Shown here in pieces: positions 1,581 to 30,810 of a stretch of 64,000 bases of DNA. Location of the stretch: assembly GCF_016026235.1 (NCBI RefSeq), contig NZ_CP065613.1; one strand, given 5' to 3'. The notes beneath the pieces were generated by a model. The model was given only the letters and a program-made list of their open reading frames with translations, did no database searches and was not told where the DNA came from. Both the position numbers and the translations under genes were made by a program. Within the stretch, counting starts at the first letter, position 1, and each line of letters starts with the position of its first letter. The stretch comes from Escherichia coli (GTDB lineage: Bacteria > Pseudomonadota > Gammaproteobacteria > Enterobacterales > Enterobacteriaceae).

Positions 1581-1599
1581 AGTAACTCCTTGTTATCTT

Positions 1600-3042: not shown

Positions 3043-3046
3043 ATTC

Positions 3047-6519: not shown

Positions 6520-6528
6520 AAGATGTCC

Positions 6529-7302: not shown

Positions 7303-7306
7303 TCAC

Positions 7307-8653: not shown

Positions 8654-8655
8654 CG

Positions 8656-10469: not shown

Positions 10470-10473
10470 AGAA

Positions 10474-13347: not shown

Positions 13348-13760
13348 TAGCGTTGATGATTGTCCAGCAAAATGTCAAATTCAAACACTCCCCAGGTTTC
13401 GCTGACATCGACCGTAGCCACAATATGAAAACGTAGTTCCACAGGGGCGTATTCATCCGGTGCCGCAGCCGTAACAACAACATCGGTAATACGAGGTTCG
13501 TAATGTAAAATGCACTGGCTAATGGACTTACGGATTTCTCGTCTGAAATCGCTGGAGGCCAGCGATTCATCATTTAAATCAGTAATCCCCAGCTCTGGTG
13601 AGCCATAACAACTGCCGGAGCGGGTATTCAGGACCTGTTGCAGGTTACGTCTGATGGAACGTATCAGTGCTTCTTTTGGATTCTGGTATGAAGGCGGGTT
13701 GGCCGCCTCACGGATACGTTCAAAAAGACTGCTGGTTGGCCCTGAATCCCGTCTTTGCAT
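13335..13760 (-). CDS. tssE: TssE (gp25-like) baseplate protein
   Basis: 141 aa; gp25/lysozyme-like family size and position after tssC. Confidence 0.75.
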   Translation of the reverse strand: MQRRDSGPTSSLFERIREAANPPSYQNPKEALIRSIRRNLQQVLNTRSGSCYGSPELGITDLNDESLASSDFRREIRKSISQCILHYEPRITDVVVTAAAPDEYAPVELRFHIVATVDVSETWGVFEFDILLDNHQRYCVE

Positions 13761-13764
13761 CTGA

Positions 13765-15249
13765 TTATTCCTTATCCAGTCGTCCGACCAGACTCAGGTC
13801 GAAACTGGCACCCATGTATTTAAAATGCGGTCTGACAGAAATCGCGACCTGGTACCAGCCTGGCTCACCATCCACATCAAGTACCTCGATCTTCGCCTGA
13901 CGTAATGGCCGGTGGCTGCGGACTTCGGCAGGCGGATTCTCCTGGTCGGCCACATACTGGCGAATCCAGGTGTTCAGCTCGCGCTCCAGGTCACTGCGTT
14001 CTTTCCATGAGCCAAGCTGTTCGCGCTGAATTACCTTGATGTAATGCGCTAACCTACTGATAACAAATAAGTATGGCAGCTGGGTGCCGAGTTTATAGTT
14101 GGTCTCCGCAGCCTTGCCTTCGGGGGTTTTGGGGAATGTTTTGGGTTTCTGCACCGAGTTGGCCGAGAAAAAGCACGCATTATCAGACCCTTTACGCATG
14201 GTCAGTGTGATAAAGCCTTCTTCCGCCAGCTCATACTCTCTCCGGTCAGTGATCAACACTTCAGTCGGAATTTTTGCCTGCATTTGCCCCATGGATTCAT
14301 ACAGATGCACCGGGAGGTCTTTGACTGCGCCGCCGCTGGAAGGGCCAATGATATTGGGACACCAGCGATATTTAGCAAAACTTTCAGCCAGGTTCGCAGC
14401 TAGTAAAAACGAGGTGTTCCCCCACAAATAAGACTCGTGACTCTGGCTGACGTCTTCATGGTAACGGAAGGTCCTGGCTGGGTTCTCATCCGGCGAGTAA
14501 GGGTGACGCAGCAGGAACCGGGGGGCGGTCAGCCCCAGGTAGCGTGAATCTTCTGATTCACGCAAGGCACGCCAGCGGGAATAGGCCGGGCCTTCAAAGA
14601 TGGCTCCTGGTTCTTTAATCCCCGGTAACTCTGTCCATGAGTCCAGACCGAAAAATTCGGATGATACTGATGAGAGGAACGGGCTGTGCGCCATCGCACT
14701 GACCTGGCTGATATATTTCAGCAACTTCATATCCGGCGTGGTGTTCTTAAAGGCAAAGTTGCCGATTACCGCCGCCACTGGCTCACCGCCAAATTGTCCG
14801 TAACCGCTTGAATATACATGTTTGTAATATGCAGACTGCGTGATTTCAGGTGCAAATTCGAAATCATCCAGCAGTTCTTCCTGAGTGACATTCAGGAAAT
14901 GGACCTTGATGTTTTCCCGTGTATCCGCGCGTTCAACCAGCAGCTTCAGCGAGCGCAGCAGGGATTCCAGTTCCTGAAACTCCGGGGCGTGAATAATGGC
15001 ATCCATCTGCCTGCTGGTTCGGGCATCAATATCAGCAATCATGGCGTCAACGGCCAGGATATTGATAGGTTCAGCGCTACTGTCACCCTGTAACATGGCG
15101 GCAATAAAGGCGCTCACGCCCTGGCGGGTGATATCGTAGCTTTCTGATTTAGGCTGGACGCGTGTTTGCGCCATGATTTCATCAAGCAGAGATGGGGGCG
15201 CGGCGGTTTGCGACGCGCTGACGGGAGCAATATCTTCCTTTACTGACAT
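13765..15249 (-). CDS. tssC: TssC (VipB) sheath large subunit
   Basis: 494 aa, highly conserved sheath protein sequence. Confidence 0.9.
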   Translation of the reverse strand: MSVKEDIAPVSASQTAAPPSLLDEIMAQTRVQPKSESYDITRQGVSAFIAAMLQGDSSAEPINILAVDAMIADIDARTSRQMDAIIHAPEFQELESLLRSLKLLVERADTRENIKVHFLNVTQEELLDDFEFAPEITQSAYYKHVYSSGYGQFGGEPVAAVIGNFAFKNTTPDMKLLKYISQVSAMAHSPFLSSVSSEFFGLDSWTELPGIKEPGAIFEGPAYSRWRALRESEDSRYLGLTAPRFLLRHPYSPDENPARTFRYHEDVSQSHESYLWGNTSFLLAANLAESFAKYRWCPNIIGPSSGGAVKDLPVHLYESMGQMQAKIPTEVLITDRREYELAEEGFITLTMRKGSDNACFFSANSVQKPKTFPKTPEGKAAETNYKLGTQLPYLFVISRLAHYIKVIQREQLGSWKERSDLERELNTWIRQYVADQENPPAEVRSHRPLRQAKIEVLDVDGEPGWYQVAISVRPHFKYMGASFDLSLVGRLDKE

Positions 15250-15271
15250 ACTGAAAATCCTTCTGTGAAAA

Positions 15272-15775
15272 TTATTTCTGAACGGCGATACCCAGTTCTT
15301 GGATCAGCTGCTCGCGGCTGTCTTCGTTTTCCAGTAGCGCCTGAAGTTGTGCGCGGAAGGCCGGAATATTGCCTAGTGGAGACTTAAGTGCGACCAGAGC
15401 TTCACGCAATTCGAGAAGACGTTTTATTTCTGGTACCTGGCTGGCAATATGGTCCGGAGAAAGGTCATCCATAGATTTGACTTTCAGGTTGACGTACATT
15501 TGCTCATTGGGAGCGTCACTGAGTTCAGCCGGAACAACAAACTCCCGTTCAATGTCAGCTTCTGAAATGACTGCGTTGAGGTTATAGCGGTTGATAGCAA
15601 TGGCAGTTCGCTCGTCCAACGGCGTGTTATCTGGTTTCCCTTTCAGATTGCCGGTGATCAATAAATTCAGCGGCAATTCGATATCAGCAGCCACCCCATC
15701 AACTTTTGGTGTATACCGAACGCTGATTCTTTCTTTCGGCGCGACACTGCCGCCATTGTTGTTCATTTTGCTCAT
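15272..15775 (-). CDS. tssB: TssB (VipA) sheath small subunit
   Basis: 167 aa; conserved TssB sequence, immediately upstream of tssC. Confidence 0.85.
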   Translation of the reverse strand: MSKMNNNGGSVAPKERISVRYTPKVDGVAADIELPLNLLITGNLKGKPDNTPLDERTAIAINRYNLNAVISEADIEREFVVPAELSDAPNEQMYVNLKVKSMDDLSPDHIASQVPEIKRLLELREALVALKSPLGNIPAFRAQLQALLENEDSREQLIQELGIAVQK

Positions 15776-16476
15776 AAAAATGTTCCCGTTCAGGCCATGA
15801 GCACAGCATTTTCGTACTGCATAAAAATACCGAAGATACCGTTTCAGTGGCAGTTAGATAATGTAACCTTCCTTCTGTTGTGATCAGTATTCTACTCATG
15901 AAATAAAATATTAAAAGAACTATTTATATTTTAGAAAGAGATGTATTCTTCCTTGCTAATATATTATAGTGAAATAAATTTTGGTATTTATAGACTTGGT
16001 GAATATGATTTTACGGTCAATAAAATACCATAATATATTGATTTATATGCATTTATTAAATTGATTAATAAGTTTTATGTATGGTTTTATCAATTAATTA
16101 ATTGCTAGCAATACATCATAAGGAATTCCTTTAAGGAATGTCTTAATTGCGTGCTGGAACGATGGCGGAGTAAGTGTCGTAATAATTTGTTTTTGACGCG
16201 GCTGTGGATTTTTATGGGGGGGAGATACGTTATGGATAATTGTGCTGTTGAAGTTGATATATTTTTAGCTTATGTGACCGTGTTCTGAAATTGACTAAAA
16301 ATATATTTAAACACCATAAAAGAGTTTTTCAGTAGGTGCTAATTACGTGTGCCTGTAACTCGAATAAAGAAAAGGGTGTGGTTCCTGATGTGAGCCGCAT
16401 CACACTCTAACCCGTCGGGGATTAACGACGGGTTGTTCGTAAAACAGCAGTTGATAATTTCACAAGGAGTTCATAA
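15776..16476. promoter_or_regulatory. AT-rich divergent intergenic region between tssB and hcp (candidate promoters / nucleoid-protein silencing region)
   Basis: About 700 bp, extremely AT-rich with phased A/T tracts, no ORF of 60 aa or more; flanked by divergent tssB operon and hcp. Confidence 0.4.
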
Positions 16477-16995
16477 ATGCCAACCCCATGTTACATTTCA
16501 ATTACAGGTCAGACCCAGGGGAACATCACTGCCGGTGCTTTCACCGCAGATTCTGTCGGCAATATCTACGTGCAGGGACACGAAGATGAAATGCTGGTGC
16601 AGGAGTTTCTGCATAACGTTACTGTTCCAACCGATCCACAGTCTGGTCAACCTTCCGGGCAGCGCGCGCACAAACCGTTCATTTTCACCGTGGCGCTGAA
16701 CAAAGCCGTTCCGCTGCTGTACAACGCGCTGGCCTCCGGTGAAATGCTGCCGAAAGTGGAGCTGCACTGGTGGCGTACTTCAGTTGAAGGCAAGCAGGAG
16801 CACTACTTCACCACACGTCTTACTGACGCGACGATTGTGGACATGAACCTGCACATGCCGCACTGCCAGGACCCTGCACAGCGTGAGTTTACGCAATTGC
16901 TCGCAGTATCACTGGCATACCGTAAGGTTGAGTGGGAGCACATCAAATCCGGTACTTCTGGTGCCGATGACTGGCGTGCACCGCTGGAAGCATAA
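16477..16995 (+). CDS. hcp: Hcp (TssD) T6SS tube protein
   Basis: 172 aa; MPTPCYISITGQTQGNITAGAFTADSVGNIYVQGHEDEMLVQEF typical Hcp. Confidence 0.9.
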   Translation: MPTPCYISITGQTQGNITAGAFTADSVGNIYVQGHEDEMLVQEFLHNVTVPTDPQSGQPSGQRAHKPFIFTVALNKAVPLLYNALASGEMLPKVELHWWRTSVEGKQEHYFTTRLTDATIVDMNLHMPHCQDPAQREFTQLLAVSLAYRKVEWEHIKSGTSGADDWRAPLEA

Positions 16996-17003
16996 ATCTG
17001 AGT

Positions 17004-17041
17004 CAACAACATCCTGCCTTCGTGCAGGATGTTGTTTTTGT
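17004..17041 (+). terminator. Rho-independent terminator after hcp
   Basis: Inverted repeat CAACAACATCCTGC / GCAGGATGTTGTT followed by TTTTTG, 9 nt after hcp stop. Confidence 0.6.
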
Positions 17042-17215
17042 ACGTGTAAAAAATGAGTGTCAGTAAGGAGTTACGCTTTCATGAGGGAGATGGCGGATGC
17101 CGGAAACCCGGGCGGTAGCGTACCTGAAAATGTAAAGATGAGTGTAACGCTGCACTGGCACCCTTTGCTGCATGGTGAGAATCATTTGGTCCGTGAATAA
17201 ATCAGGGAGGTCATT

Positions 17216-19615
17216 ATGTCCTTAAAAGGTCTGCGCTTTACGCTGGAGGCTGACGGCCAGGAGCCGGACACCTTTGCAGTGGTGAATTTCAGGTTAATCC
17301 AGAACCAGTCTTATCCGTTTGTGATGAGTGTGGATGTTGCCAGCGACTCTTTTATGCAGACGGCGGAGATGCTGCTGGAGAAGAAGGCGACGCTGACCAT
17401 CTGGCAGGGCGTCATCCCGCTGCGTTATGTTACCGGCGTGGTGGCGGGCTTTGGCATGCAGGAGAACAATGGCTGGCAGATGCGTTACCACCTGCGTATT
17501 GAGCCGCCGTTATGGCGGTGCGGGCTGCGGCAGAATTTCCGTATCTTCCAGCAGCAGGATATCCGGACGATATCGGCCACGTTACTGAACGAGAACGGCG
17601 TCACGGAGTGGACGCCGCTGTTTTATGAGGACCATCCGGCGCGGGAGTTCTGTGTGCAGTACGGGGAGTCGGACCTGGCGTTTCTGTCCCGGCTGTGGGC
17701 GGAGGAGGGAATTTTCTTCTTTGAGCGGTTTGCGGCGGACAGTCCGGAGCAGAAGCTGACGCTGTGCGACGATGTGGCGGGGCTGTCACAGGCGGGAGAG
17801 CTTCCGTTTAACCCGGACACATCGGCAGGAGCGGAGACAGAGTGTGTCAGTATGTTCCGTTATGAGGCGTATGTCCGCCCGTCGTCGGTGCAGAGCCAGG
17901 ATTACACGTTTAAGGTGCCGGACTGGCCGGGGATGTATGAGCAGCAGGGTGAGAACCTGAACGGACAGCTGGCGCAGTACGAGATATTTGATTATCCGGG
18001 AAGGTTCAAGGATGAGCAGCACGGCAAGGATTTCACGCTGTACCAGATGGAGAGCCTGCGCAGTGATGCGGAAAAGGCCACAGGGCAGAGTAATTCGCCG
18101 AGGCTGTGGCCGGGAACGCGGTTTACGCTGACGGGGCATCCGCAGAAGATGCTGAACCGTGAATGGCAGGTGGTACAGAGCATTCTGTCAGGAAACCAGC
18201 CGCAGGCGCTGCACGGCAGCCAGGGAAAGGGAACCACACTGGGAAATCAGTTAGAGGTGATACCGGCGGACCGGACGTGGCGTCCACGGCTGCAAAGCAA
18301 ACCGAAGGTGGACGGGCCACAGAGCGCCATTGTCACCGGGCCTGCGGGAGAGGAAATCTTCTGCGATGAACATGGCCGGGTACGGGTGAAGTTCCACTGG
18401 GACCGTTATCACGGGATGACGGAGGCGAGTTCATGCTGGGTGCGGGTATCGCAGGCGTGGGCGGGGCCGGGGTTTGGTAACCTGGCGATACCGCGGGTGG
18501 GCCAGGAGGTGATTGTTGATTTTCTGAACGGAGACCCGGACCAGCCGCTGGTCATGGGCCGGACGCACCATGAGGACAACCGTTCGCCGGGCGACCTGCC
18601 GGGAACGAAGACGCAGATGACCATCCGGTCGAAGACCTATAAAGGAAGCGGATTTAACGAACTGCGCTTCGAGGACGCCACCAGTAATGAGCAGGTGTAT
18701 ATCCATGCGCAGAAGAACATGGATACGGAGGTGCTCAACGACCGGACAACGGATGTGAAACATGACCATACGGAAACCATCGGTAACGACCAGAAGATAA
18801 CGGTGGTGAAGGGTCAGACGGTTCAGGTCGGTACAAAAAAAGAGGGGGGCCACGACCAGAGTATCACGGTGGCGAACGACCGGCGTATCACGGTACGTAA
18901 TGACCAGACTCTGAAGGTGACGAATGACCGGACGGTGAGCGTGAGTCACGATGACGGTCTGTACGTCAGAAACGACCGTAAAGTGACGGTGGAAGGGAAG
19001 CAGGAGCATAAGACGACGGGGAACCATATCAGTCTGGTGGAGGGGAAACACAGCCTGGTGGTGAAGGGGGACCTGGCGGAGAAGGTGAGTGGCGCGCTGG
19101 GGATAAAAGTGGACGGGGATATCGTGCTGGAGAGCAGCAGCCGGATAAGCCTGAAGGTGGGTGGCTCGTTTATCGTCATTCAGCCGGGCGGAGTGGATAT
19201 TGCCGGGCCGAAGATAAACCTGAACGGTGGGGGCAGTGCGGGGACACCGGTGGGGACGATGCAGCCGGCGGTGCTGGAGGCTCCGGAGGATGAGAGCAGT
19301 GATGATGGCAGTGATGACTCCGGAGAGGATAGTGGCAATCCCGCAGGGAGTGACGGAGGAGGTGATGGCGGTGACGATGAAGATGATCCTGAAAAATATA
19401 CCCTCCAGTTCCATTTTACGGACGATGACGGGATACCGTATTCAGAGACGCAGTATATTGCCTTTTTTGAGGATGGCACACAGACGCGTGGTGAAACAGA
19501 CAGAGAGGGATATACAGAAATATTTTATACAGATACAGCACAGGAAATTAAAGTCCAATTGTTATTTTCGGATGCTTTTTATATTGAGCCGGAGGGGCAT
19601 TATGGCAGGGAATAA
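17216..19615 (+). CDS. vgrG: VgrG (TssI) spike protein with acidic C-terminal extension
   Basis: 799 aa; gp27/gp5-like body, repeated RNDxT/V-type beta-helix motifs, C-terminal acidic linker (DDGSDDSGED...GGDDEDD) plus about 70 aa tail. Confidence 0.9.
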   Translation: MSLKGLRFTLEADGQEPDTFAVVNFRLIQNQSYPFVMSVDVASDSFMQTAEMLLEKKATLTIWQGVIPLRYVTGVVAGFGMQENNGWQMRYHLRIEPPLWRCGLRQNFRIFQQQDIRTISATLLNENGVTEWTPLFYEDHPAREFCVQYGESDLAFLSRLWAEEGIFFFERFAADSPEQKLTLCDDVAGLSQAGELPFNPDTSAGAETECVSMFRYEAYVRPSSVQSQDYTFKVPDWPGMYEQQGENLNGQLAQYEIFDYPGRFKDEQHGKDFTLYQMESLRSDAEKATGQSNSPRLWPGTRFTLTGHPQKMLNREWQVVQSILSGNQPQALHGSQGKGTTLGNQLEVIPADRTWRPRLQSKPKVDGPQSAIVTGPAGEEIFCDEHGRVRVKFHWDRYHGMTEASSCWVRVSQAWAGPGFGNLAIPRVGQEVIVDFLNGDPDQPLVMGRTHHEDNRSPGDLPGTKTQMTIRSKTYKGSGFNELRFEDATSNEQVYIHAQKNMDTEVLNDRTTDVKHDHTETIGNDQKITVVKGQTVQVGTKKEGGHDQSITVANDRRITVRNDQTLKVTNDRTVSVSHDDGLYVRNDRKVTVEGKQEHKTTGNHISLVEGKHSLVVKGDLAEKVSGALGIKVDGDIVLESSSRISLKVGGSFIVIQPGGVDIAGPKINLNGGGSAGTPVGTMQPAVLEAPEDESSDDGSDDSGEDSGNPAGSDGGGDGGDDEDDPEKYTLQFHFTDDDGIPYSETQYIAFFEDGTQTRGETDREGYTEIFYTDTAQEIKVQLLFSDAFYIEPEGHYGRE

Positions 19616-20405
19616 TAATACTAGTGGGACTTCACAACCCGAGTCGCAAGTATGTGTAGTACCGCAAAAAATTACAAATAAATTTAAAATAATGATGAGT
19701 AAGGCTTGTAAAGCACAGAAAATGGTTTTATTGAAAAGAGCAGATGATATTATGTCATGGGAGGGGGAACAACAACGAGATTTTATTAAAGTTTTTGGCC
19801 TTAAAGGCGAGGACATTATAAAAATCAGAAAGGTTGGGGAAGATACTGGGAAACGAATGCAAGCGAGACTATTCATAATGGATGGCATCAGACGAATAAT
19901 GACGATTGCAAATGGTTTGACGATCGAAAGCTATAAAGATTATACGAACTGCAATGAATTTGCTGCTTTTATTAGTCCACATCTTGATCCTCCTTACATT
20001 GTAAATATCGGAGCGCATTTTGAATACAGACATGGTATAAAACAGTCGGTTACAGGTAGAGACTCTCATGTAAGTACACTTTGCCATGAAATGTCCCATA
20101 TATTTTGGTATTGGGGTGACAATCAAAAAGGTGGTATGTGGACTCAGGATTATACGGGTATTAATAAGTTCGCAACAAGTAATAAGGATGAAGTTAGCTA
20201 TGAGAAACATGTTTCAGTGGCTAATGATCTGGTTACATTGCGTAAAGATCAGTTATTTGAGAATGCATATAATGTTGAAAGATATTTTTATATAAAATTA
20301 AATGATGAAGATATTGAAGCTCAAGATGAGAATATGTTAGCAAAAAAAGTAGAGGATAAAATAAAAGAGATAGAAAAATGTTTTGATGAGTTGATGGGGA
20401 AATAA
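19602..20405 (+). CDS. Putative VgrG-associated effector, zincin-like metallopeptidase candidate (HExxH)
   Basis: ATG at 19602 overlaps vgrG stop by 14 nt (track ORF 19227..20405 begins inside vgrG). AT-rich; motif STLCHEMSHIFWYWGD...WTQDYTG (HExxH plus a downstream Asp). Confidence 0.45.
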   Translation: MAGNNNTSGTSQPESQVCVVPQKITNKFKIMMSKACKAQKMVLLKRADDIMSWEGEQQRDFIKVFGLKGEDIIKIRKVGEDTGKRMQARLFIMDGIRRIMTIANGLTIESYKDYTNCNEFAAFISPHLDPPYIVNIGAHFEYRHGIKQSVTGRDSHVSTLCHEMSHIFWYWGDNQKGGMWTQDYTGINKFATSNKDEVSYEKHVSVANDLVTLRKDQLFENAYNVERYFYIKLNDEDIEAQDENMLAKKVEDKIKEIEKCFDELMGK

Positions 20406-20468
20406 GATGAAGAGGTTGGCTTTCTATAATCTAAATTATGTTGTACTGATGGTTTTTTTCTTTGTTTT

Positions 20469-21155
20469 TTGCCATTATCTATTGCAATTGCAATAGATAA
20501 TGAGAATCTTTTTGTAAAAAAATACAGATTCGGTTTTGAACGAAGAAGTGACAATGGGAAACCAATTATTTATCTTAGCCATAATTTAGCGCCAGAGGAA
20601 AATATAAGTAATGAATTAACAAATGATGTTGTTGTTAAATTGGTGGTTAAGCCACATGCTGAAAATATTTTAGCTACTATAACTTTTTATAACAGTAGTA
20701 CTAAATCGTATTTTCTCCCCAGAATATATTATCCAAAGAACTTCCAAAAAGGAAATGGAGATGTATTTGATGCTTTGTGTGATGACGAATTCTTGATTAC
20801 ATCAGGAAATATTAGCTTAGACTATCTAGGAGGCTTTTGTCCCTTTGAGCTTGATTTGAATTTGAGCCGATGGGTGGAAATTACGGCAGGTAAAAAAATA
20901 TCTTTTGATGTAAAATTGAATGATATGCATTCATTTCTCCCCAGTTTAAATAATTATCATATAAAAACATTAAACTACAAACTTGTTAGGAGAAAATGGT
21001 TTGTATTAAAATCAATTAATGAAACATTCCTCTCTATTTTGATGAAAAGATACTCATGTAATGAATATGATTTTAGAGCTATATCATTTAGTGGAGAGGG
21101 ATGTGATAATTATGAATTTGATAAAAATACGTTTTTTTTGTTAATCAAATATTAG
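20469..21155 (+). CDS. Hypothetical protein, immunity candidate for the upstream effector
   Basis: AT-rich 228 aa ORF directly downstream; begins with TTG in the track; a 29-codon ATG-initiated hydrophobic peptide (20407..20496) lies in another frame just upstream across a T-run. Confidence 0.3.
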   Translation: MPLSIAIAIDNENLFVKKYRFGFERRSDNGKPIIYLSHNLAPEENISNELTNDVVVKLVVKPHAENILATITFYNSSTKSYFLPRIYYPKNFQKGNGDVFDALCDDEFLITSGNISLDYLGGFCPFELDLNLSRWVEITAGKKISFDVKLNDMHSFLPSLNNYHIKTLNYKLVRRKWFVLKSINETFLSILMKRYSCNEYDFRAISFSGEGCDNYEFDKNTFFLLIKY

Positions 21156-21394
21156 ATAAAGATGATGAGCAACATTCTGTTCATATTAGGTCTAATGAAT
21201 TTTCCATCAATATCGATGGAAGCTTGGTAAAGCAACCTTATTGATTAAAATGTATCGCAGGTTTTATTTTCTGTAATGCTGGTGCATGTGCGTAAATATT
21301 TCTTAAGAGCCGGAAACACCTCTTCCGCCTTTATCGACGATAAACCTACCGCCAGAACCGGTGATGCCATTGACTGCGGTGGCGTGGTTAAAGG

Positions 21395-21732
21395 TGGCGG
21401 GCGATGTGGTGCTGGAGAGCAGCAGCCGGATAAGCCTGAAGGTGGGCGGTTCGTTTGTGGTCATCCATTCAGGGGGCGTGGACATCGTCGGGCCGAAAAT
21501 CAATCTCAATAGCGGCGGTAGTCCGGGAACGCCGGTGCCGACGCTGCAACCGGCGGTTCTGAAAGCGCTGGCAGATGATAAAAGTTTAGCGGCTGAGCAA
21601 AATGATAGTAATGCATCGTCCGATCAGAATGATAACAACGATGAGGGTGAGGAAGCGCCAGAAAAATCGGTGTGTAAGGAGTGCCTGAAAAGGGCGCAAG
21701 AAGCCGCCGCCGTTTTTGCGCCTCGTGGATAA
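21395..21732 (+). pseudogene. vgrG 3-prime fragment (orphan VgrG C-terminal region)
   Basis: 21395-21560 is near-identical at DNA and protein level to vgrG 19103-19270 (GDVVLESSSRISLKVGGSFVVI...GPKINLN); upstream sequence is unrelated to vgrG; distinct C-terminal tail. Confidence 0.7.
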
Positions 21733-21738
21733 GGGAGA

Positions 21739-22509
21739 ATGACAATGATAACAGTATCGCCACACGCTACCGATCAAGACAAATATATTATCTGGCTGAA
21801 GCAAGCTGAATCATTCTGTTCTGCCGCTGGTTTGGATTACATAGATGTGCTTGTTGACCAGGCTGGAACCGACCAACCTTTGCAAAATGATATGCTTCAT
21901 CTGTGGCCAGCCATTCACTGGTATGCCCTGTTTGAAGGAACGCCTGAAGCTGAGACGATGGAGTATTCCCCTGTAGTGTTACGCCTGTACTTTGCGCTCA
22001 GTAGCCATCGCAAATTTCTGGCACAACTGATGGCGTCATTTGCTGATACGCCGCGTCTTACTTTGTTGATATCCCCTCTTACATTCGACCTGCTGGGGCG
22101 GCATCTTCAGGTATTGTCACAGGTTCAGTGGGAAGAACAGACCGGATTGCTGCGTTACTATGATAATCGGGTGTTCCCTTTACTGTTCACACATGTTTTG
22201 ACTAACGAGCAGCAGGCGACATTTACTGATATTGCGTTGTTCTGGAGCTGGTTAGACCGTGATGGTGAGATTAACTGGAAATCAGGAAGTTTTTCACCAG
22301 AACGCAGGCTTACTGACAACCCGGAGATGAATCGGGTGGATGATGTACAGGTGGGATTGATGGGCTGTATCTGCGACGCTGAAGTCCTGATGAAGGAGAA
22401 AGCAGTCAGTGAACTCAGTCAGGAAAGCTATTTTGCCCACTGTCTTGATATTGCTTTCAGAGCCAATGACGCGAAATATTTCGGAGCTTTGCGGGACTTC
22501 GAAGGATAA
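21739..22509 (+). CDS. DUF4123-like T6SS effector adaptor (Tap/Tec-type)
   Basis: 256 aa immediately after the vgrG fragment (RBS AAGGGAG); size and position typical of DUF4123 adaptors. Confidence 0.6.
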   Translation: MTMITVSPHATDQDKYIIWLKQAESFCSAAGLDYIDVLVDQAGTDQPLQNDMLHLWPAIHWYALFEGTPEAETMEYSPVVLRLYFALSSHRKFLAQLMASFADTPRLTLLISPLTFDLLGRHLQVLSQVQWEEQTGLLRYYDNRVFPLLFTHVLTNEQQATFTDIALFWSWLDRDGEINWKSGSFSPERRLTDNPEMNRVDDVQVGLMGCICDAEVLMKEKAVSELSQESYFAHCLDIAFRANDAKYFGALRDFEG

Positions 22510-22822
22510 TATTGTGGTGATGTACGGGGAGATTTATCTGTTTAAAAGTCCGTAGCTGTTAATATCAAGAGATAATCGTGAAATAAACGGAAAATCAAGC
22601 TCGACATGTAATGGTAGTATCCATCATGTTGCATTTGTGTTCGATCGTAATGTCAGTTCACTTGGCTGCAATATATTTTGCGTAATATCATCAATGCTCT
22701 GTCGATATTCCAATGTGTGACAATCGAAAGATATGCATTTTATTTGCTTCTTTGTCAAAACTTTATTGTCGTAGAAACAATACCCATCAATTAAAATCTC
22801 TCAAAGTAAAAGAACCAGCAAC

Positions 22823-23377
22823 ATGTCCAGCAAAATAAGGAAAAGTATCAGTATGAGAGCGATTTTCAAATGTTATTCTCTAATGATTTTATTTGCAGTA
22901 TCAGGCTGTTCAATGGCAAAAAATAGCGGTGATTACACTGCTGTGGATATTAATGGGATAAATCATACGGATAAGGATATAAATTATATACACATCAATG
23001 GTTACGGCGGACCAAATATTGGCCCATTCGGAGACGGTGGAAGATATTGTTGCGTTATGCTGCCAGATAAGTGGCATTCTGGATTAAAAGCCCGAGTTGA
23101 GTGGGAGGTTGATCCAAATACAGCTCCTCTGCCTCCAGGCTATAAGGACAGGGAGAAATTTGAAGCATGGAAGAAAGTTGCGCTAAACAGTTTTAGAAAA
23201 TATTCAACAATTGTTGATATCCCGGAATATGATGCTGAGCTTTGTGGCCTGACCGTTCATTTTCTAACGTGTAATCAGATAAAAGTGACAACCGTCTGCC
23301 AGAAATATGGTACACCAAATTATCCTATCAAAGAACCCCGCGAGATGAAGGAACCAGCAACATGTCCAGCAAAATAA
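22823..23377 (+). CDS. DUF3304-like lipoprotein, Tli1-type immunity candidate (copy a)
   Basis: 184 aa, signal peptide with lipobox VSGC; paralogous to the next gene; Cys-rich (RYCCVMLPDKWHSGLKARVEWEVDPN). Confidence 0.5.
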   Translation: MSSKIRKSISMRAIFKCYSLMILFAVSGCSMAKNSGDYTAVDINGINHTDKDINYIHINGYGGPNIGPFGDGGRYCCVMLPDKWHSGLKARVEWEVDPNTAPLPPGYKDREKFEAWKKVALNSFRKYSTIVDIPEYDAELCGLTVHFLTCNQIKVTTVCQKYGTPNYPIKEPREMKEPATCPAK

Positions 23378-23904
23378 GAAATGGAATGAATATAACAAAA
23401 GTAGTTAAAGGCTGTCTGGTATTAATTTTGATGGTGATTTCGGGTTGCTCAGCAGCTAATTACGACGATTATACTGCAGGTGATCTCCGGGCAATAAATC
23501 ATATTAAAGGTATCAGTATTAATTGGTTCACCGTAAATGGTTATCGGGTCCATGGTTTGGGCGGTGGATATTGCTGCATAATGTTACCAGAGAAGTGGCA
23601 TTCTGGATTAAAAGCCCGGATCGAGTGGGAAGTAGACCCGAACCCCCTTGAACCTATTGCAATGAAAAAAGAAGGTTTTGGCTATGAAGAAGATGCTTAT
23701 GCTAAACATGCTGCAAATTATCAAAAATATAAAGTAATTGTTGATATCCCGGAATACGGCGCTGAACGTTGTGGCCTGACCGTTCATTTTCTGCCGTGTA
23801 ATCAGATTAAAGTGACAACCGTCTGCGAGGGCTATGGCACACCGAATTATCCTATCAAAGAACCCCGCGAGATGAAGGAACCTGCAACATGTCCAGCAAA
23901 ATAA
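23362..23904 (+). CDS. DUF3304-like lipoprotein, Tli1-type immunity candidate (copy b)
   Basis: 180 aa paralog of 22823..23377; the 3-prime approx 130 bp are about 90 percent identical between the copies. Confidence 0.5.
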   Translation: MSSKIRNGMNITKVVKGCLVLILMVISGCSAANYDDYTAGDLRAINHIKGISINWFTVNGYRVHGLGGGYCCIMLPEKWHSGLKARIEWEVDPNPLEPIAMKKEGFGYEEDAYAKHAANYQKYKVIVDIPEYGAERCGLTVHFLPCNQIKVTTVCEGYGTPNYPIKEPREMKEPATCPAK

Positions 23905-25982
23905 GTGGTCTGGCTTTTCCGTGTTATGCCCCCCCGGTGTTCCCTGAAGATGGGCGATTAATATTATCTGAAGTGCAGGTAAACGCGAACTACCTAAAAC
24001 AAATCAATAAAACAGAGGAGCACAAAACCAACTGTAGTAAACAGGCTGGATTTAGAATTGGCTTTACGTGTAATCAAAGTCTGCATATTAGTCTGTTTTT
24101 TGATGGTACAAATAATAATGAATATAATGACACAAAAGTCTCTCATCCAACCAATATTGCGAAATTATTCCACACAAGTATCGAAGACCGTAATGCTGGG
24201 TATTTTTCCTATTACATACCTGGTGTAGGCACACCATTTCCCAAGATAGGTGAAATGGATTACAGCAACAGCGGACTGGAATTTGCCACCGGTGGTGAAG
24301 ACAGGATTAATTGGGCATTATTACGCCTCGTGGATGCTCTTAGCTATGCTATTGACCCTACCCAAAATGGGCTGAATGAGAAGGTGGCAAAAGAGCACAT
24401 TCCTGTCATGCGAGCTCACTGGCCGATGACTGGTGAAGTGAATCGTCGCAATGTGATTAACCCCTACCTGGAAAAATTACAGGGGCAGTTAGAACAAGCC
24501 AGTCCGCGCCTGCTAAACGTAAAGCTATTTATCTACGGATTTTCCCGTGGCGCAGCGGAAGCGCGAACCTTTGTTAACTGGTTGACTCAGTTAGCTTGCC
24601 CGCAGAGGCAACAGGTGATGCTGGCCGGTTTAGCTGTCAGTATTGAGTTTTTGGGGCTGCTGGATACCGTAGCTTCTGTGGGGGCGGCGCATGTTTTGCC
24701 GGGCGCTGCCGGTCATATGGGATGGGCCGATAGTACTCAGCAACTCCCTGATGAGCGGCACTTTCCCGGCCTGATTAAATGCTGTCGTCACTTCGTTGCC
24801 GCGCATGAGCAGCGGCTGTGCTTCCCGCTGGATTCAATCCGTCGTCCTGAAGGCAATTATCCTTTATATGCAGAGGAAGTGATCTATCCGGGGATGCACT
24901 CTGATGTCGGTGGTGGCTATCCCGTTTGCGATCAGGGGAAGTCCTGTGGAGGTCCAGATGAAATTCTCTCTCAAATTGCTCTGCATGATATGTATCTTGC
25001 GGCGTTTGATGAGGGCTCTCCATTATCAGTGCATCCTTTATTCATAACCAAAATGATAAAAGATATTTCACCATCAAGAGCTATGTCTGATTCATCAATT
25101 GCTGAATTTGTCATCGCTCCAATGTTGATTAAACGCTTCAACATCTGGCGTCAAGCGCTGCTGAACACCACCTTGCAGGGTACAGAAGAAATGATTGATA
25201 CGAGGGAAGGTTATCACTCCTATCAACTTGCCCAGGTTCTTGAAAGCGCAATTAGCGATCAGATCGGCTGGATCACCGCCTGGCGTATCGGTCGCTATGC
25301 GAATAACAGCCTTCTTGTGCAACCTTTTTATATTAAGGCGCCACAGCTGGATAAAGATGGACTTGATAAAGAGGCTAAAGCGCGTAAAGAACAAATGGAA
25401 AATATTGAAAAAGAACAGGCGAACAAGCAGAAAGGGAATGGCACACTTGATGAAAGTAATCAGGGCATTCCTATCCTTGACCCAACCAATGCTCAGTATC
25501 AGTTGCGAGAGGCAGCCCGAGAATTTCAGAGCGATTATAAAGGATGGACGCGCGATATTAACGGCAGCGTCATGGAGAAAGCCATTCAGATTCTTGTGGA
25601 TGTCATTCCTAAATATCCGGTGTATCTGATTAATGGCGATGATGAAGCAAAAGAATATCAGCAAATTAAGGCTATGGGAGACGGACTCTATCCACAATTT
25701 TTTATTGATTCACTGGGAACGGGAACGCGTACTCAGCCATGCGCTGAATTACTGGCTCTCTATGATGACCAGGTTCACGACTCCCGCGCCTGGTTTATGC
25801 AAAGTTCGCTGGGTGGACGCGAACCCTGGGGCGGTTATTTTCGCTACCGCATGATTTACTTCGGTGATGAGGCTAATAAAGAGCTGAAGCTAATCTCTGC
25901 AGATGGCAAAGTTGTTGGCGATCAGCCCACATCCAACCGGGTCATTTATTGGATGGAATCGAAAACGGTGAGCCGAGGTTAA
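23889..25982 (+). CDS. Tle1-like phospholipase effector (DUF2235 alpha/beta hydrolase)
   Basis: 697 aa; DUF2235 hallmark HISLFFDGTNNN and nucleophile elbow GFSRG; follows adaptor and lipoprotein genes. Confidence 0.7.
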   Translation: MSSKISGLAFPCYAPPVFPEDGRLILSEVQVNANYLKQINKTEEHKTNCSKQAGFRIGFTCNQSLHISLFFDGTNNNEYNDTKVSHPTNIAKLFHTSIEDRNAGYFSYYIPGVGTPFPKIGEMDYSNSGLEFATGGEDRINWALLRLVDALSYAIDPTQNGLNEKVAKEHIPVMRAHWPMTGEVNRRNVINPYLEKLQGQLEQASPRLLNVKLFIYGFSRGAAEARTFVNWLTQLACPQRQQVMLAGLAVSIEFLGLLDTVASVGAAHVLPGAAGHMGWADSTQQLPDERHFPGLIKCCRHFVAAHEQRLCFPLDSIRRPEGNYPLYAEEVIYPGMHSDVGGGYPVCDQGKSCGGPDEILSQIALHDMYLAAFDEGSPLSVHPLFITKMIKDISPSRAMSDSSIAEFVIAPMLIKRFNIWRQALLNTTLQGTEEMIDTREGYHSYQLAQVLESAISDQIGWITAWRIGRYANNSLLVQPFYIKAPQLDKDGLDKEAKARKEQMENIEKEQANKQKGNGTLDESNQGIPILDPTNAQYQLREAAREFQSDYKGWTRDINGSVMEKAIQILVDVIPKYPVYLINGDDEAKEYQQIKAMGDGLYPQFFIDSLGTGTRTQPCAELLALYDDQVHDSRAWFMQSSLGGREPWGGYFRYRMIYFGDEANKELKLISADGKVVGDQPTSNRVIYWMESKTVSRG

Positions 25983-26039
25983 GTTCATAAGATTGAGGGG
26001 TTGGTGACCGGGAAAATGTAGACATGTAGTGCCTAATCA

Positions 26040-26100
26040 CCCCAGTTCAAACCCATCCGCATCCCGCCATGCCGGAAACTTCACACTGTACTCCCAGGGA
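26040..26100 (-). pseudogene. Diverged duplicate of the yafV 3-prime end
   Basis: 26053-26092 matches 29895-29928 (catccgcatccYgccatgccggaaactt); reverse translation reads ...KFPAWRDADGFELG*, like the yafV C-terminus ...[14 protein letters not shown]. Confidence 0.45.
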
Positions 26101-26238
26101 AAAATCACGTAATGCTGCTTTTTTTGTACTAAATAATTCGCATTTTATGTTCAATAATTGAGGTGTTCCTTATTACCTAAAGCTGTTTTTCATTGCTTAT
26201 ACATGATCAAATACTCATTGCATAATTAAGGGGGCAAA

Positions 26239-27055
26239 ATGGAACTTAAAAAATTGATGGAACATATTTCTATTATCCCCGATTACAGGCAAGCCTGGAA
26301 AGTGGAACATAAATTGCAGATATTCTATCTGTTAACTATTTGCGCCGTTATTTCTGGTGCATAATGCTGGGAAGATATAGAGGATTTGGGGAAACACAAC
26401 CCGATTTTTTGAAGTGATATGGTGATTTTGAAAATGGTATTCCTGTTCACGATATCATTGCCAGAGTTGTATCCTGTATCAGTCCTGAAAAATTTCATGA
26501 GTGCTTTATTAACTGGATGCGTGACTGTCATTCTTCAGATGATAAAGACGTCATTACAATTGATGGAAAAACGCTCCGGCACTCTTATGATAAAAGTCGT
26601 CACAAGGGAGCAATTTATGTCATTAAAATCCGTCTTCATATTGTTTGCATGTCTCTGATGAATTTATTGATTTTACGTTTGAATGGAAAGGGCTGAAGAA
26701 ATTATGCATGGCAGTCTCATTTCGCTCAATAATAGCAGAACAAAAGAAAAATCCCGAAATGACGGTCAGATATTATAGCATTTCTGCTGATTTAACCGCA
26801 GAGAAGTTCGCCACAGCGAACCGAAATCACTGGCAAGTGGAGAATAAATTGCACTGGCATCTGGACGTGGTAATGAATAAAGACGACTTTATAATAAGAA
26901 GATGAAATGCAACAGAATTATTTTCAGGGATACGGAACATCGCTATTAATATTTCAAAGAAAGATAAGATACTCAAGGCCGGGGCAAGATGTAAGATGTG
27001 AAAGCAGCTGCGGACAGAGACTACCTCGCGTCAGTCCTTTCGGGGGCGGGCTTTC
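26239..27055 (+). pseudogene. H-repeat associated protein (ISAs1-family transposase) pseudogene with internal deletion and frameshifts
   Basis: Starts [26 protein letters not shown]..., then stop/frame changes; contains [28 protein letters not shown] and C-terminal [23 protein letters not shown]...[20 protein letters not shown]; about 320 bp of the middle are missing relative to the full-length family. Confidence 0.7.
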
Positions 27056-27228
27056 GTAATCTTGCTCTGCAAGGGATGATAAAAAGTGCAACTTTATTCC
27101 ACGCAGCTATTTAGACAGCGTACAGTAAACAAACGAAAGTTGTTATTTCAATGGTCAGGGCAAGAGCATGAAGTGTTTACTACACACTATGCTCTTGTAC
27201 TGGAGTCAGGTCTTGTTTGGAGGGATAA

Positions 27229-27732
27229 ATGGTAGATATTGTCGAGGCCGATAAAACGGATATTTATTTCATTCAGGAGAGTGTTTATGGCAAAATCGGG
27301 TTGCCAGCTTTTGGTAATACAATAGGACCATCCGCACAGCAAGTTGTTAAAAAGGTATTCGCTGTCGTTAAAGAACGAGATAAGACACATGCAAAACAGA
27401 GATTATTGTTGGAATATAATGGTAACAAACTCTGGATGAATGCTATTGATGGCAGTGAAGCTATCCTACCAACAGAATTTTCTAAGCGATACGAACTTTC
27501 ATTATTCAATACTACTAATTTTGGAGAAGATCCTTTTCCTGATGTTAATTTATATAATAATATGAAATCAAGTTTTTTTGTAAGGTTTGGTGGAACATCC
27601 CATCCCGAGGCTTGGGCTATTTATAATGCAAGTACGAAAGAGGTTAAATATATAGAAACTGCAAGAGAAATTGATAAAATATTCAGTGATTTTAACTTGA
27701 GTGGTACATTGCCAATTCACATTGGTCAATGA
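27229..27732 (+). CDS. Hypothetical protein (AT-rich orphan ORF)
   Basis: 167 aa ORF in a very AT-rich segment between H-repeat fragments; no recognisable motif. Confidence 0.3.
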   Translation: MVDIVEADKTDIYFIQESVYGKIGLPAFGNTIGPSAQQVVKKVFAVVKERDKTHAKQRLLLEYNGNKLWMNAIDGSEAILPTEFSKRYELSLFNTTNFGEDPFPDVNLYNNMKSSFFVRFGGTSHPEAWAIYNASTKEVKYIETAREIDKIFSDFNLSGTLPIHIGQ

Positions 27733-28005
27733 TTTTTCAAATTGTGTGATTAAATAATTGAACATTAATGATGATTTATAGCATCATTATTCTATAACAT
27801 GAATAAACGGATTGAATGTGTTATGTTAAAAATGAGTTTATACGTAATAATATTGTTATTTCCCTTTCAGATTAGTGCAGCCATTACTAGCAAGGAAAGT
27901 GAGGTTGTTTCACCATTATTAATGGATGTTAATTCTTCACTAACAATGGAAAATATTTCTGAATTATCCACATCATCGGAACCATCGCAACAGGGGGTAT
28001 TTCCC

Positions 28006-29297
28006 TGAGGGATCCCCAGAAAATTTAGTAAACCATTATCATATTGGTATACCGTTGCTGTAGAACTTTCAGCCCTGCGTCAAGTGACAGTGTGTTTAGT
28101 ATGAGTGGAGAATGTCGAATCACATTCTCCGCCAGTTTTAATAACGAGATGACTCGCCTGTGCTTCACTGTATTTGCCTGATATTTATGATGTATCCCTT
28201 TGTTTTCCAGGCTGAAACCGCTTAACCACATAATGATACTGGCTAATGTTGCGATCAGACTCAATACCGTGACCCGCCCGGATGAATGACTGGCACCAAA
28301 CCGTAGTCCAAATCCCCAGCGAGGATTTTTTTCATCCCTGAAATTTTGCTCAATTTGCATTCTACGGCTGTATAATTTCATTACCTGTTTTGGCGAGAAC
28401 TCAGTACTGTTTGTGAAAATAAACCATGGTGATTTCCCGGCAGTACGAGCTTTAGCCGTCACCGATGGTCTGGTTGCTCTTTCCTTCGAGCGTTTAAATC
28501 TACGACCTTTAGGCTTACTTTTATAAAGATAAAAATGCCCTTCATGTTGTGCATTTTTATCTCGACCCAGCAGGCCTTCACCTAAATAAATTGCTGTCGT
28601 TGATGCTTTTGTGCCTGAGTCCGACACCTTTTCCCAGCCATTACCAACATTGTAATAATGATTGCCCAGTACCCGGCAAATATAGGTCCAGCCACGGGAG
28701 CGGAGCTGTTGGAACCATCGCCCCTGAAAACCGGCATCTGTAATAACAATGACATCAGTCCCGGGGGAAAAGCACTCAGCAAGCGATTCCAGAAAACGCT
28801 CATGTACATCTGCATTCGCTGTCTGTGATGATGGAACGACACAACTCATCAACGGTAAAGAACGCCCGTCACATGCCAGGCTTGCCCGCAAAAGCTGAAA
28901 ACGAGAGGCATGATAAGCACTCCAGTCAATGAGTATCACAACACGAGACATTCCCCGCGTAATCTTTTGGGTAATTCGCTGAAAAATGGTGGAAACCTCA
29001 TTTTGCAAATGTCGATTCCCCAACAGTCGATCCACCCGCTTTATTTTGTTTTTAACTGATGCCGTACCGGTTAAATGACGCCCGATACTGGTAAGTGTGA
29101 GGGAAGCGCCATTTATTACAGCATTAGTTGCGTCAATCAGTGATTTTTGACGGTAAAGATGCAAAGGGGCCAGTATATTGTTAAGGAAATTTTGGCATAA
29201 TGAACGTGCAGGCATAGTGGTGATCTCCTTGAAATTGTTAGCACAATCAATTAGATCACATCTCACTATGCCTGTCTTGTTTTCTGGGGATTCCTCA
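28006..29297 (-). mobile_element. IS4-family-like insertion sequence, copy 1 (intact), approx 1292 bp
   Basis: Terminal inverted repeats TGAGGGATCCCCAGAAAA / TGAGGAATCCCCAGAAAA; 11-bp direct repeat GGGGTATTTCC at 27994-28004 and 29298-29308; single transposase ORF. Confidence 0.8.
28025..29215 (-). CDS. IS transposase (intact)
   Basis: Track ORF 28025..29266; start placed at ATG 29215 (MPARSLCQNFLNN...) with RBS AAGGAG, matching the start in copy 2. Confidence 0.8.
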   Translation of the reverse strand: MPARSLCQNFLNNILAPLHLYRQKSLIDATNAVINGASLTLTSIGRHLTGTASVKNKIKRVDRLLGNRHLQNEVSTIFQRITQKITRGMSRVVILIDWSAYHASRFQLLRASLACDGRSLPLMSCVVPSSQTANADVHERFLESLAECFSPGTDVIVITDAGFQGRWFQQLRSRGWTYICRVLGNHYYNVGNGWEKVSDSGTKASTTAIYLGEGLLGRDKNAQHEGHFYLYKSKPKGRRFKRSKERATRPSVTAKARTAGKSPWFIFTNSTEFSPKQVMKLYSRRMQIEQNFRDEKNPRWGFGLRFGASHSSGRVTVLSLIATLASIIMWLSGFSLENKGIHHKYQANTVKHRRVISLLKLAENVIRHSPLILNTLSLDAGLKVLQQRYTNMIMVY

Positions 29298-29635
29298 GGG
29301 GTATTTCCTGTAATATGTACTCGACTTCATCCTGGCTCTGTAATGAAACGCCAGTTATTAACCGGCTGGGGGCCTGTTTTTATAATTGGGGATGATCCTT
29401 TTTCTCTGCGCTGGATGAGTGAACATCTGGAGATCCTTAAATCGCTAAATGCCCTTGGTTTGGTTGTTAATGTTGAATCAGTAGAACGAATGGAGGTATT
29501 ACAGCAGCGGGCTGATGGGTTATTGTTATTGCCAGTTATCTGCGATAATTTCGTGCAAACTCTGCAATTAAATGCTTATCCGGTATTAATCACAGAGATG
29601 GAAATATCACAATGATTAATAACATAATTACTGCA

Positions 29636-29835
29636 AATAATATCGTAATTTTGAAAATGGTAATCCTGTTCACGACACCATAATTAGAGTTATGTCTTGT
29701 ATCCGTTCAGTATAATTTCACGAATGCTTTATTAACTGGATGCGTGACTGCCATTCATCAAATGATAAAGACGTCATCGCAATTGATGGAAAAGCGCTTC
29801 CACACTCCTATGATAAAAGTGGTCGCAGGAGAGCG
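29636..29835 (+). pseudogene. H-repeat associated protein fragment (second, diverged copy of the 5-prime region)
   Basis: Encodes ...[35 protein letters not shown]...; about 85 percent DNA identity to 26420-26590, same orientation. Confidence 0.55.
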
Positions 29836-29886
29836 GGCTTTCGTAGTAATACCCCGACTCTCCCCGTCCTTAAACACAACCCCCAC

Positions 29887-30666
29887 TCACCACAACCTAA
29901 ACTCATCCGCATCCTGCCATGCCGGAAACTTTTCTCTATATTCCCGCAATGCCATCATCGACAGCTCCGCATCAATGCGCGTTGCCTGATGCGCGTCGGC
30001 AGTAGCGATAATCTCGCCTTGTGGATTAATCACCCGGCTGTCACCGCGATAATGGCAGCCGTTGCCATCGCTGCCGACGCGATTGCATCCCGCCACATAC
30101 GCCTGATTCTCAATCGCGCGGGCCGTCAGCAATGCCTGCCAGTGCAGAGAGCGCGGAGCAGGCCAGTTGGCAACGTAGATGGCGAGGTCATAATCGTTGA
30201 GATTGCGCGACCACACCGGAAAACGTAAGTCGTAGCACACCAACGGCAAAATACGCCAGCCGCGCCATTCCACAATCACTCGCGCATTGCCCGCTTTATA
30301 ATGTAGATGCTCATCTGCCATGCGGAACAGATGACGCTTATCATAAAAATGTACCGTGCCGCCCGGCTCAACCAGCAAAAAGCGGTTAACCGAACCAGAC
30401 TCCGTTTGTAATGCAACACTGCCTGCAATCAGCGCATTGCACTGCTGCGCCTTAGCTGTCATCCAGTTCACTACGTCATCTTGTGCTAGCGACGAAGCTG
30501 CCGCTTCCATGGCAAAGCCGCTGGTAAACATCTCCGGTAGAACGATCACATCGCGCCCGGTAATACCTTCCAGTTGACGATCAAAATGACGCAGGTTGGC
30601 AGGGCCATCCATCCACACCAGTGGTTGCTGCAAAAGCGTAATCTTCAAACCAGGCACGGTGTACAA
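29887..30666 (-). CDS. yafV: YafV-like carbon-nitrogen hydrolase (omega-amidase)
   Basis: 259 aa nitrilase-superfamily protein; true start may be a GTG three codons downstream ([11 protein letters not shown]...). Confidence 0.85.
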
Positions 30667-30810
30667 CTCCTTTATGCGAAGGGTTTTATAACTTTAACAC
30701 CTTATCAGGCAGTTGCCTTAGCGCAGAATAAATTGATAACAAATGCTGATATTGGAAATATCTGATTTGCAAATTATCGTGTTATCGCCAGGCTTTAGAA
30801 GGTTAATAAC

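Follow-up and report, generated by a model that had tools for sequence, protein, structure and literature searches.

How did the DNA between a type VI secretion system (T6SS) cluster and the chromosomal gene yafV come to hold two diverged copies of a yafV end and two diverged copies of an H-repeat? The question arises at 26–30 kb of a 64,000-nucleotide stretch of Escherichia coli DNA (contig NZ_CP065613.1; hereafter the window), in which positions 1 to ~26,000 hold the T6SS-1 cluster, followed by yafV, ivy and fadE. A sequence-only reading had taken the segment for an accretion bounded by direct repeats, in which repeated insertion or recombination at one H-repeat/yafV junction had brought in positions 27060–29620 as cargo. 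The accretion of decayed mobile-element pieces beside yafV was borne out, and the segment is probably the decayed right-hand tail of the T6SS-1 genomic island lying between tRNA-Asp (aspV) and yafV. The tail itself is likely a stack of separate events rather than a single structure. T6SS islands at aspV have been described in several genome papers; no tRNA gene was found within the window itself. The nearest complete E. coli genome, FDAARGOS_943, is 99.9–100% identical in this region, and the same interval in K-12 reads aspV-yafT-ykfM-yafU-yafF-yafV-ivy-fadE. All components of the tail are of known, already annotated kinds, and no new kind of element or mechanism was revealed; RefSeq already labels both H-repeat relics, a protein of an integrating conjugative element (ICE) family and a hypothetical protein. 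The sole unannotated item is a 58-nt footprint of a second yafV, here called yafV'.

A blastn self-comparison of positions 25800–30800 recovered all the similarities that had been noticed from the letters alone, within a few bases of where they had been placed and far above chance. The H-repeat pair (26417–26611 and 29640–29834) is 83% identical over 195 nt (E = 1.6e-54), and the pair of yafV 3' ends (26032–26095 and 29882–29945) is 78% identical over 64 nt, with a core (26049–26095 and 29899–29945) at 85% over 47 nt (E = 1.8e-9). The diverged copy of the yafV end behind the Tle1-like gene is real and in frame, with its stop codon kept. The two direct, diverged H-repeat copies are real as well, but the stretch they share is the 5'-middle part of the element and not, as had been thought, its 5' end. 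The four features concerned are as follows.

26037–26094, minus strand: yafV' relic, comprising the stop and the last 19 codons of a yafV of non-E. coli type, cut by the left end of H-rpt#1.
26095–27069, plus strand: H-rpt#1, a dead ISAs1-family element (ISEc1-like H-repeat) with both terminal repeats, a 312-bp internal deletion and a broken frame.
29639–29856, plus strand: H-rpt#2, an ISAs1/H-repeat remnant comprising element nt ~324–520, the last 18 nt of the open reading frame (ORF) and a degenerate end.
29887–30666, minus strand: intact yafV (2-oxoglutaramate amidase), a full-length equivalog match to NF007757 (546 bits, cut-off 249).

The yafV' relic reads EYSVKFPAWRDADGFELG in frame up to the stop codon at 26037–26039. 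Distribution was counted throughout in 5,426 complete E. coli genomes, nearly every one of which carries yafV as a single copy at 90–100% identity, with all but 2 records at 95% or more; a second or divergent yafV was found in none of them. Against this allele range, the relic lies outside. Its final 14 residues (KFPAWRDADGFELG, then the stop) are identical to those of the YafV orthologues P0023, P0024 and P0029, and comparison of the last 14 codons with these orthologues (L032) gave eight synonymous and no non-synonymous differences. As the differences are all synonymous, yafV' derived from a functional gene. The orthologues are full-length proteins, 83% identical to a query in which E. coli YafV had been given the C-terminus of yafV', and sit on metagenome contigs with the synteny nqr...fadE-ivy-yafV-aspV-dnaQ. 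They were found with this full-length hybrid, a short hybrid query having returned only 12 short fragments from the protein collection. These comparisons of sequence identify yafV' as a scrap of a functional yafV that belonged to a different enterobacterial lineage, truncated at codon −19 where the H-repeat end begins. It resembles the gene-remnant footprints of island borders, in that a short, in-frame, divergent copy of the end of a flanking core gene stands at the inner border of imported DNA; unlike those, it is internal, with the older island tail between relic and resident gene, and does not mark the island/backbone border. The orthologues ending in GFELG were also considered as the donor itself and rejected, their DNA being only 81% identical.

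The relic adjoins the end of an effector cassette, which was delimited by comparison with the T6SS-1 aspV island of S88.

18906–25982, plus strand: variable VgrG C-terminus, Tla1, two Tli1a and Tle1 cassette, the segment that differs from S88-type genomes.

Window and S88 are collinear from 1 to 18905, inside vgrG, at 95% identity, show no homology over 18906–26094, and match again exactly from 26095 onward, the position at which the H-rpt#1 end begins; the swapped unit stops just before it. That an H-repeat end is a recombination boundary, as had been proposed from the letters, was thereby upheld. The swapped unit consists of the VgrG C-terminus, Tla1, two Tli1a genes, Tle1, a 54-nt spacer and yafV'. 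NCBIfam matches were obtained for VgrG, Tla1 (NF053803) and Tli1a (NF053804, twice), and the cassette has a G+C content of 43%, compared with 55.6% for the T6SS core. S88 shares the T6SS core (at the 95% given above) and the tail from H-rpt#1 to yafV, its H-rpt#1 carrying the same 312-bp deletion. Its order is VgrG-DUF2169-Cpe1-Cpi1, followed by H-rpt#1, the gene of a 167-aa protein, a PFL_4695-like gene, H-rpt#2 and yafV; 536 and the avian pathogenic (APEC) strains match by annotation. The window has Tla1-Tli1a-Tli1a-Tle1 and the yafV' scrap in place of DUF2169-Cpe1-Cpi1. The S88-type left junction, with Cpe1-Cpi1, occurs in 298 genomes, and the Tle1 3' end with yafV' in only 69, to which LP5-1 is added without Tle1, an IS1 deletion having removed the DNA from aspV almost up to yafV'. 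The exclusive linkage of yafV' to the Tle1 cassette argues for its arrival with that cassette. The imported part thus probably extends, in ~70 genomes, from mid-vgrG (~18905) to the left end of H-rpt#1 (26094).

We infer that the VgrG-Tla1-Tli1-Tle1 cassette replaced another one (Cpe1-Cpi1 in S88-type strains), or the reverse, and that it would have brought along the 58-nt end of a foreign yafV, its neighbour in some other enterobacterial lineage, where the cassette presumably adjoined yafV at the same chromosomal site. Homologous recombination, within vgrG at the left and through shared H-repeat sequence at the right, would be the most economical reading of the exchange. The dead H-repeat most likely provided the right-hand shared homology, or else a transposase acting at its end may have made the junction. 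Under the latter alternative, a foreign insert with a whole yafV would have stood left of H-rpt#1 and been trimmed by a one-ended or adjacent deletion at the left end of that element, with the transposase supplied in trans. The yafV similarity does stop exactly where the H-repeat end begins, no target duplication surrounds H-rpt#1, and H-repeats occur in 5,330 of the 5,426 genomes at a median of ~5 places, often adjoining PAAR or RHS genes and some with intact transposase genes. This alternative is nonetheless unlikely, as H-repeat transposition, according to a genome paper, has not been observed (PMC3032704), no intermediate with a longer yafV' was found, and S88-type genomes have a different flank at this very end, for which an exchange via common H-repeat sequence is the simpler explanation.

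Identity to S88 (L029) within the tail is a mosaic: 98–99% over 26151–26548, 91–95% over 26549–27046, 99–100% in the 167-aa gene and 88–96% in H-rpt#2. Such patchiness over only 4 kb points to distinct tracts of recombination or conversion. In the 167-aa gene there are no mismatches to S88 over 27247–27646, while the H-repeat relics differ by 5–12%.

Metagenome contigs were also scanned for the pattern of Tle1 flank and yafV', which gave one low-coverage contig from the human gut (L041) with the same yafV'/H-repeat junction and no intact yafV. Over positions 300–1730 it contains the Tle1 end, yafV', a 21-nt stub of an H-repeat end and, behind the stub, another H-repeat, this one lacking the 312-bp deletion, so that the ends are nested. 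The same junction, combined with a different H-repeat arrangement, indicates that it predates those variants. A crossover ~30 nt inside H-rpt#1, at which four clustered differences from S88 occur, was considered and dropped, since this contig links yafV' to the S88-type end.

To the right of 26095, the tail proved to be the constant part of the locus. Between the two H-repeat relics it contains a two-gene module, interrupted in the window by an insertion sequence.

27229–27732, plus strand: 167-aa orphan ORF (WP_000227712-like), without a family match.
27799–28004, plus strand: 5' part of a PFL_4695/DUF2859-like gene with a signal-peptide-like N-terminus, split by ISEc60.
28005–29298, minus strand: ISEc60 (IS4 family), 1,294 bp, with its transposase at 28025–29266 on the minus strand.
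29299–29615, plus strand: 3' part of the PFL_4695/DUF2859-like gene, assigned on the same evidence as the 5' part.

The module was detected in 746 of the 5,426 genomes, with a cover of 80% or more in 542, and at one locus per genome in nearly all; the whole tail is common to ~14% of E. coli genomes. The block of two genes and both H-repeat remnants stands behind Cpe1-Cpi1 in S88, 536 and APEC, behind Tle1 in the window and, in part, behind an unrelated island in UPEC 26-1, where that island and a fragment of IS630 are followed by an incomplete PFL_4695-like gene, H-rpt#2 and yafV. In another E. coli (L040), a diverged form of the gene pair occupies the same locus without H-rpt#1. The view of positions 27060–29620 as cargo of an event between the repeats is thus not supported. 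Half of these positions are the 1,294-bp ISEc60 insertion, which the sequence-only reading did not mention. With the tail constant and the left flank variable, the history is the opposite of the one first proposed.

In the L040 locus (3931–9818 of OU349849.1), the divergent allele comprises a 165-aa protein, 68% identical to the 167-aa protein, and a DUF2859 gene 87% identical at the DNA level. It is preceded by genes for Thioredoxin-like, TIGR02270-like and Mn-catalase proteins, and followed by a full-length H-repeat that ends 386 bp from yafV. In the tails of other strains (H5, H6, H24, H27–H29, L004, L030), IS1A, IS100, a group II intron (ltrA), two IS1 or an IS630 fragment was seen.

This distribution also bears on an origin in situ, in which a single H-repeat/yafV junction would have undergone repeated insertion or unequal recombination, trapping 27060–29620 between copies that then diverged in place. 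Both repeat pairs are indeed direct and in the same order, ~3.2–3.85 kb apart, and the region is a mobile-element sink in many strains. The yafV' relic, however, is only 79% identical to the resident gene, compared with at least 90%, and nearly always at least 95%, among E. coli alleles (differences of 0–5% in nearly all genomes), and its C-terminal peptide is exactly that of another lineage, with synonymous differences only. It travels with the Tle1 cassette in only ~70 genomes and is missing from ~90% of those carrying the H-rpt#1-module-H-rpt#2 block. A local duplication of yafV is thereby contradicted; the relic is instead the C-terminus of a different enterobacterial YafV. Nor do the two H-repeats behave as copies from one event, as they are 83% identical to each other and each ~83–91% identical to other H-repeat copies, hence no closer mutually than to unlinked ones. 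With the supposed cargo also present without H-rpt#1 in L040, origin in situ is already largely refuted by the distribution, and we regard it as very improbable.

A former composite transposon, with the two H-repeats carrying the module to this place, would likewise be suggested by two ISAs1-family copies of the same orientation flanking two genes of low G+C content (34–40%). H-rpt#2, however, lacks a left end, neither copy encodes a transposase, no target duplication is present and the copies are only 83% identical. The module, in addition, sits at one locus in nearly all carriers and beside a single H-repeat in L040. For want of usable outer ends and a target duplication, this explanation was rejected as extremely unlikely.

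The 3' end of resident yafV raised a further alternative. The last four codons of the intact gene differ from those of the island-free allele, the alleles diverging at ~29899; in ST131 without the island, aspV is followed by 98 bp and then yafV. Three endings share one divergence point in the last four codons, namely EFRLW (K-12 and window), EFTFR (ST131) and GFELG (relic), each followed by the stop (window 29887–29903; L027 4988–5005). Divergence at the same point places the island/backbone border inside the 3' end of the gene. The relic and the resident gene might accordingly be viewed as attL/attR-type repeats of an integrative element that targets the yafV 3' end and supplies a replacement gene end. 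Direct repeats of a gene 3' end do flank a 3.8-kb AT-rich segment, the three alleles diverge as just described, and one gene belongs to an ICE protein family. Against this, genes for an integrase, a relaxase or any other transfer function are absent from the ORFs and annotations of the segment and its neighbourhood, and no identical core exists, the best one matching at 31/33 nt. The similarity, furthermore, stops where an insertion sequence terminates and not at the boundary of a fixed core, the block occurs without yafV' in hundreds of genomes, and neither an excised circle nor an empty site restoring a GFELG-type yafV was present in thousands of genomes. Lacking an integrase and an identical core, this reading was rejected too, and we see hardly any chance of its being correct.

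The anatomy of the H-repeat relics was established against the complete 1,292-bp element around K-12 yhhI. H-rpt#1 aligns with it end to end except for a 312-bp gap (26094–26625 and 26626–27069 at 89–91%, corresponding to extract positions 134–666 and 979–1425), which confirmed the earlier view of the first H-repeat as an internally deleted pseudogene. Its left end starts with CAGGG at 26095, and other H-repeat copies begin to match at 26087–26095. CAGGG-type terminal inverted repeats are a feature of H-repeats in ISfinder-type descriptions. Those of H-rpt#1, CAGGGAAAAATCACG and the reverse complement CAGAGCAAGATTACG, agree at 11/15 positions, the boundary being confirmed by the match starts of the other copies. 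Instead of an intact ORF for a DDE transposase of ~378 aa, pieces of 41, 79, 59 and 86 aa were found. H-rpt#2 turned out to be internally deleted as well, a point absent from the sequence-only reading, and lacks the first ~323 nt, thus the left end; it matches the yhhI element at 29639–29835 (85%) and 29828–29845 (94%). RefSeq flags both copies as pseudogenes, H-rpt#1 as 'ISAs1 family transposase'. They are relics and not functional members of the ISAs1/H-repeat (ISEc1) family, which H-rpt#1 resembles in its end-to-end alignment and CAGGG-type ends and from which both differ in being dead (one by deletion and broken frame, the other twice truncated), neither with a target duplication. H-repeats in Rhs and T6SS loci have long been known, and the position of H-rpt#1, directly downstream of a T6SS effector/immunity cassette, conforms to that pattern.

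The right junction of H-rpt#2, GAGCGGGCTTTCGTAGTAATACCCCGACTCTCCCC..., is identical to that of K-12 yafF with yafV, GAGCGGGCTTTCGTAGTAATACCCCGACTCTCCCCGTCC..., and yafV, ivy and fadE lie beyond in both. Unlike in the window, the T6SS, H-rpt#1 and the two-gene module are gone from K-12, whose yafF keeps element nt ~1002–1281, compared with ~324–520 and the last 18 nt of the ORF in H-rpt#2. A shared junction with different surviving parts indicates that the H-repeat beside yafV is old and was eroded differently in each lineage. The full-length H-repeat of L040 might be the undeleted form of H-rpt#2, although its left junction does not align and its right end stands 386 bp further from yafV.

Several layers may accordingly be proposed for the tail. 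The oldest would be an H-repeat of ISAs1/ISEc1 type adjoining yafV, of which one piece was kept in the window, S88 and UPEC 26-1 and another in K-12 (yafF). The next layer to the left would be the two-gene module, encoding the 167-aa orphan and a PFL_4695/DUF2859-like secreted protein, together with the second dead H-repeat, H-rpt#1. The cassette exchange would have followed at the left end of the latter, and the latest event was the insertion of an active ISEc60 into the PFL_4695-like gene in the lineage of this strain.

Several observations weigh against this history or loosen parts of it. The DNA of yafV' is scarcely closer to the foreign orthologues than to resident yafV: over its 58 nt it matches the metagenome enterobacteria L031 and L032 at 50/58 and 47/58 positions and the resident gene at 46/58, so that the donor stays without a match. 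An intact GFELG-type yafV behind this Tle1 was found in no genome, and a scan of one genome per species gave Tle1 relatives at 22 loci of other species, at most 71% identical and none of them with a yafV less than 6 kb away. A target-site duplication is lacking around H-rpt#1, whose flanks ...CTGTACTCC and CAAGGGATGA share no repeat; at least one flank must therefore have been rearranged, and the order of events is not directly readable. K-12 yafF is 97% identical to yhhI, compared with 85% for H-rpt#2 over its non-overlapping part, and the common origin of the two is drawn from a shared junction of 30–40 nt, which gene conversion could also explain. Finally, contig L041, with 2x coverage, may be chimeric across the repeat.

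If the history of layers holds, the aspV–yafV interval is a hot spot whose stratigraphy separates an old shared part, a swapped part and a strain-specific insertion. It would also offer a concrete case of T6SS effector cassette exchange, with vgrG on one side, a dead insertion sequence on the other and a foreign scrap of a flanking gene as the footprint, of use for mapping effector-cassette turnover in E. coli. Annotators can also draw on the yafV' fragment, on the interruption of the PFL_4695-like gene and on how yafF and H-rpt#2 are related. It is conceivable, although we give it little credence, that the dead H-repeat has been kept as a fixed right-hand anchor for swapping VgrG-effector-immunity cassettes, and that the 167-aa/DUF2859-like pair is a maintained T6SS-linked module. 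Cassettes from other genera would then be swappable, with the yafV' scrap as a record, and the pair might be, for example, an orphan immunity pair or a secreted one. In this connection, the gene pair is known as two alleles at the same locus with only 68% protein identity.

As to the module itself, the 167-aa ORF has no match in Pfam, NCBIfam or PADLOC, homologues were found only in E. coli (among them the L040 allele of this locus, 68% identical), and its AF2 model, at a pLDDT of 42, is unusable. The uninterrupted PFL_4695-like protein of FDAARGOS_943 matches TIGR03765 at 120.8 bits (cut-off 59.75). Its neighbours are H-repeat relics, the orphan ORF and T6SS genes, with no conjugation, relaxase or integrase genes among them, and the gene is a lone family member, not an ICE. 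Excision of ISEc60 together with one copy of the target duplication restores an ORF of 170 codons, one residue different from the FDAARGOS_943 protein, and the empty site is present in that genome (L001).

The ISEc60 copy is typical of its element, being 99.9% identical to annotated copies over 1,294 bp, with an IS4-type transposase (NF033591, 360.3 bits; cut-off 152), inverted ends matching at 18/19 positions and a 10-bp target duplication, GGGTATTTCC, at 27995–28004 and 29299–29308. Unlike its sequence, its site is singular, with an insertion here in 0 of the 5,426 complete genomes. At least 38 copies were counted in FDAARGOS_943; ISEc60 is therefore active in this lineage, and an ongoing expansion is suggested. 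Copies of ISEc60 are also present on large plasmids of CFSAN029787-type strains.

Two minor features were observed within the swapped cassette. No NCBIfam match was obtained for three ORFs at 19227–21732, between vgrG and tla1, which encode 392 aa (the one that overlaps the end of vgrG), 228 aa and 123 aa. Further downstream, the tandem Tli1a immunity genes (22823–23377 and 23362–23904) overlap through a shared junction of ...EPATCPAK, stop and MSSKI...; the end of a third, truncated Tli1a copy lies at 22713–22838, and Tle1 itself begins with MSSKI. The array at 22713–23904 looks like the product of unequal recombination within the immunity genes.

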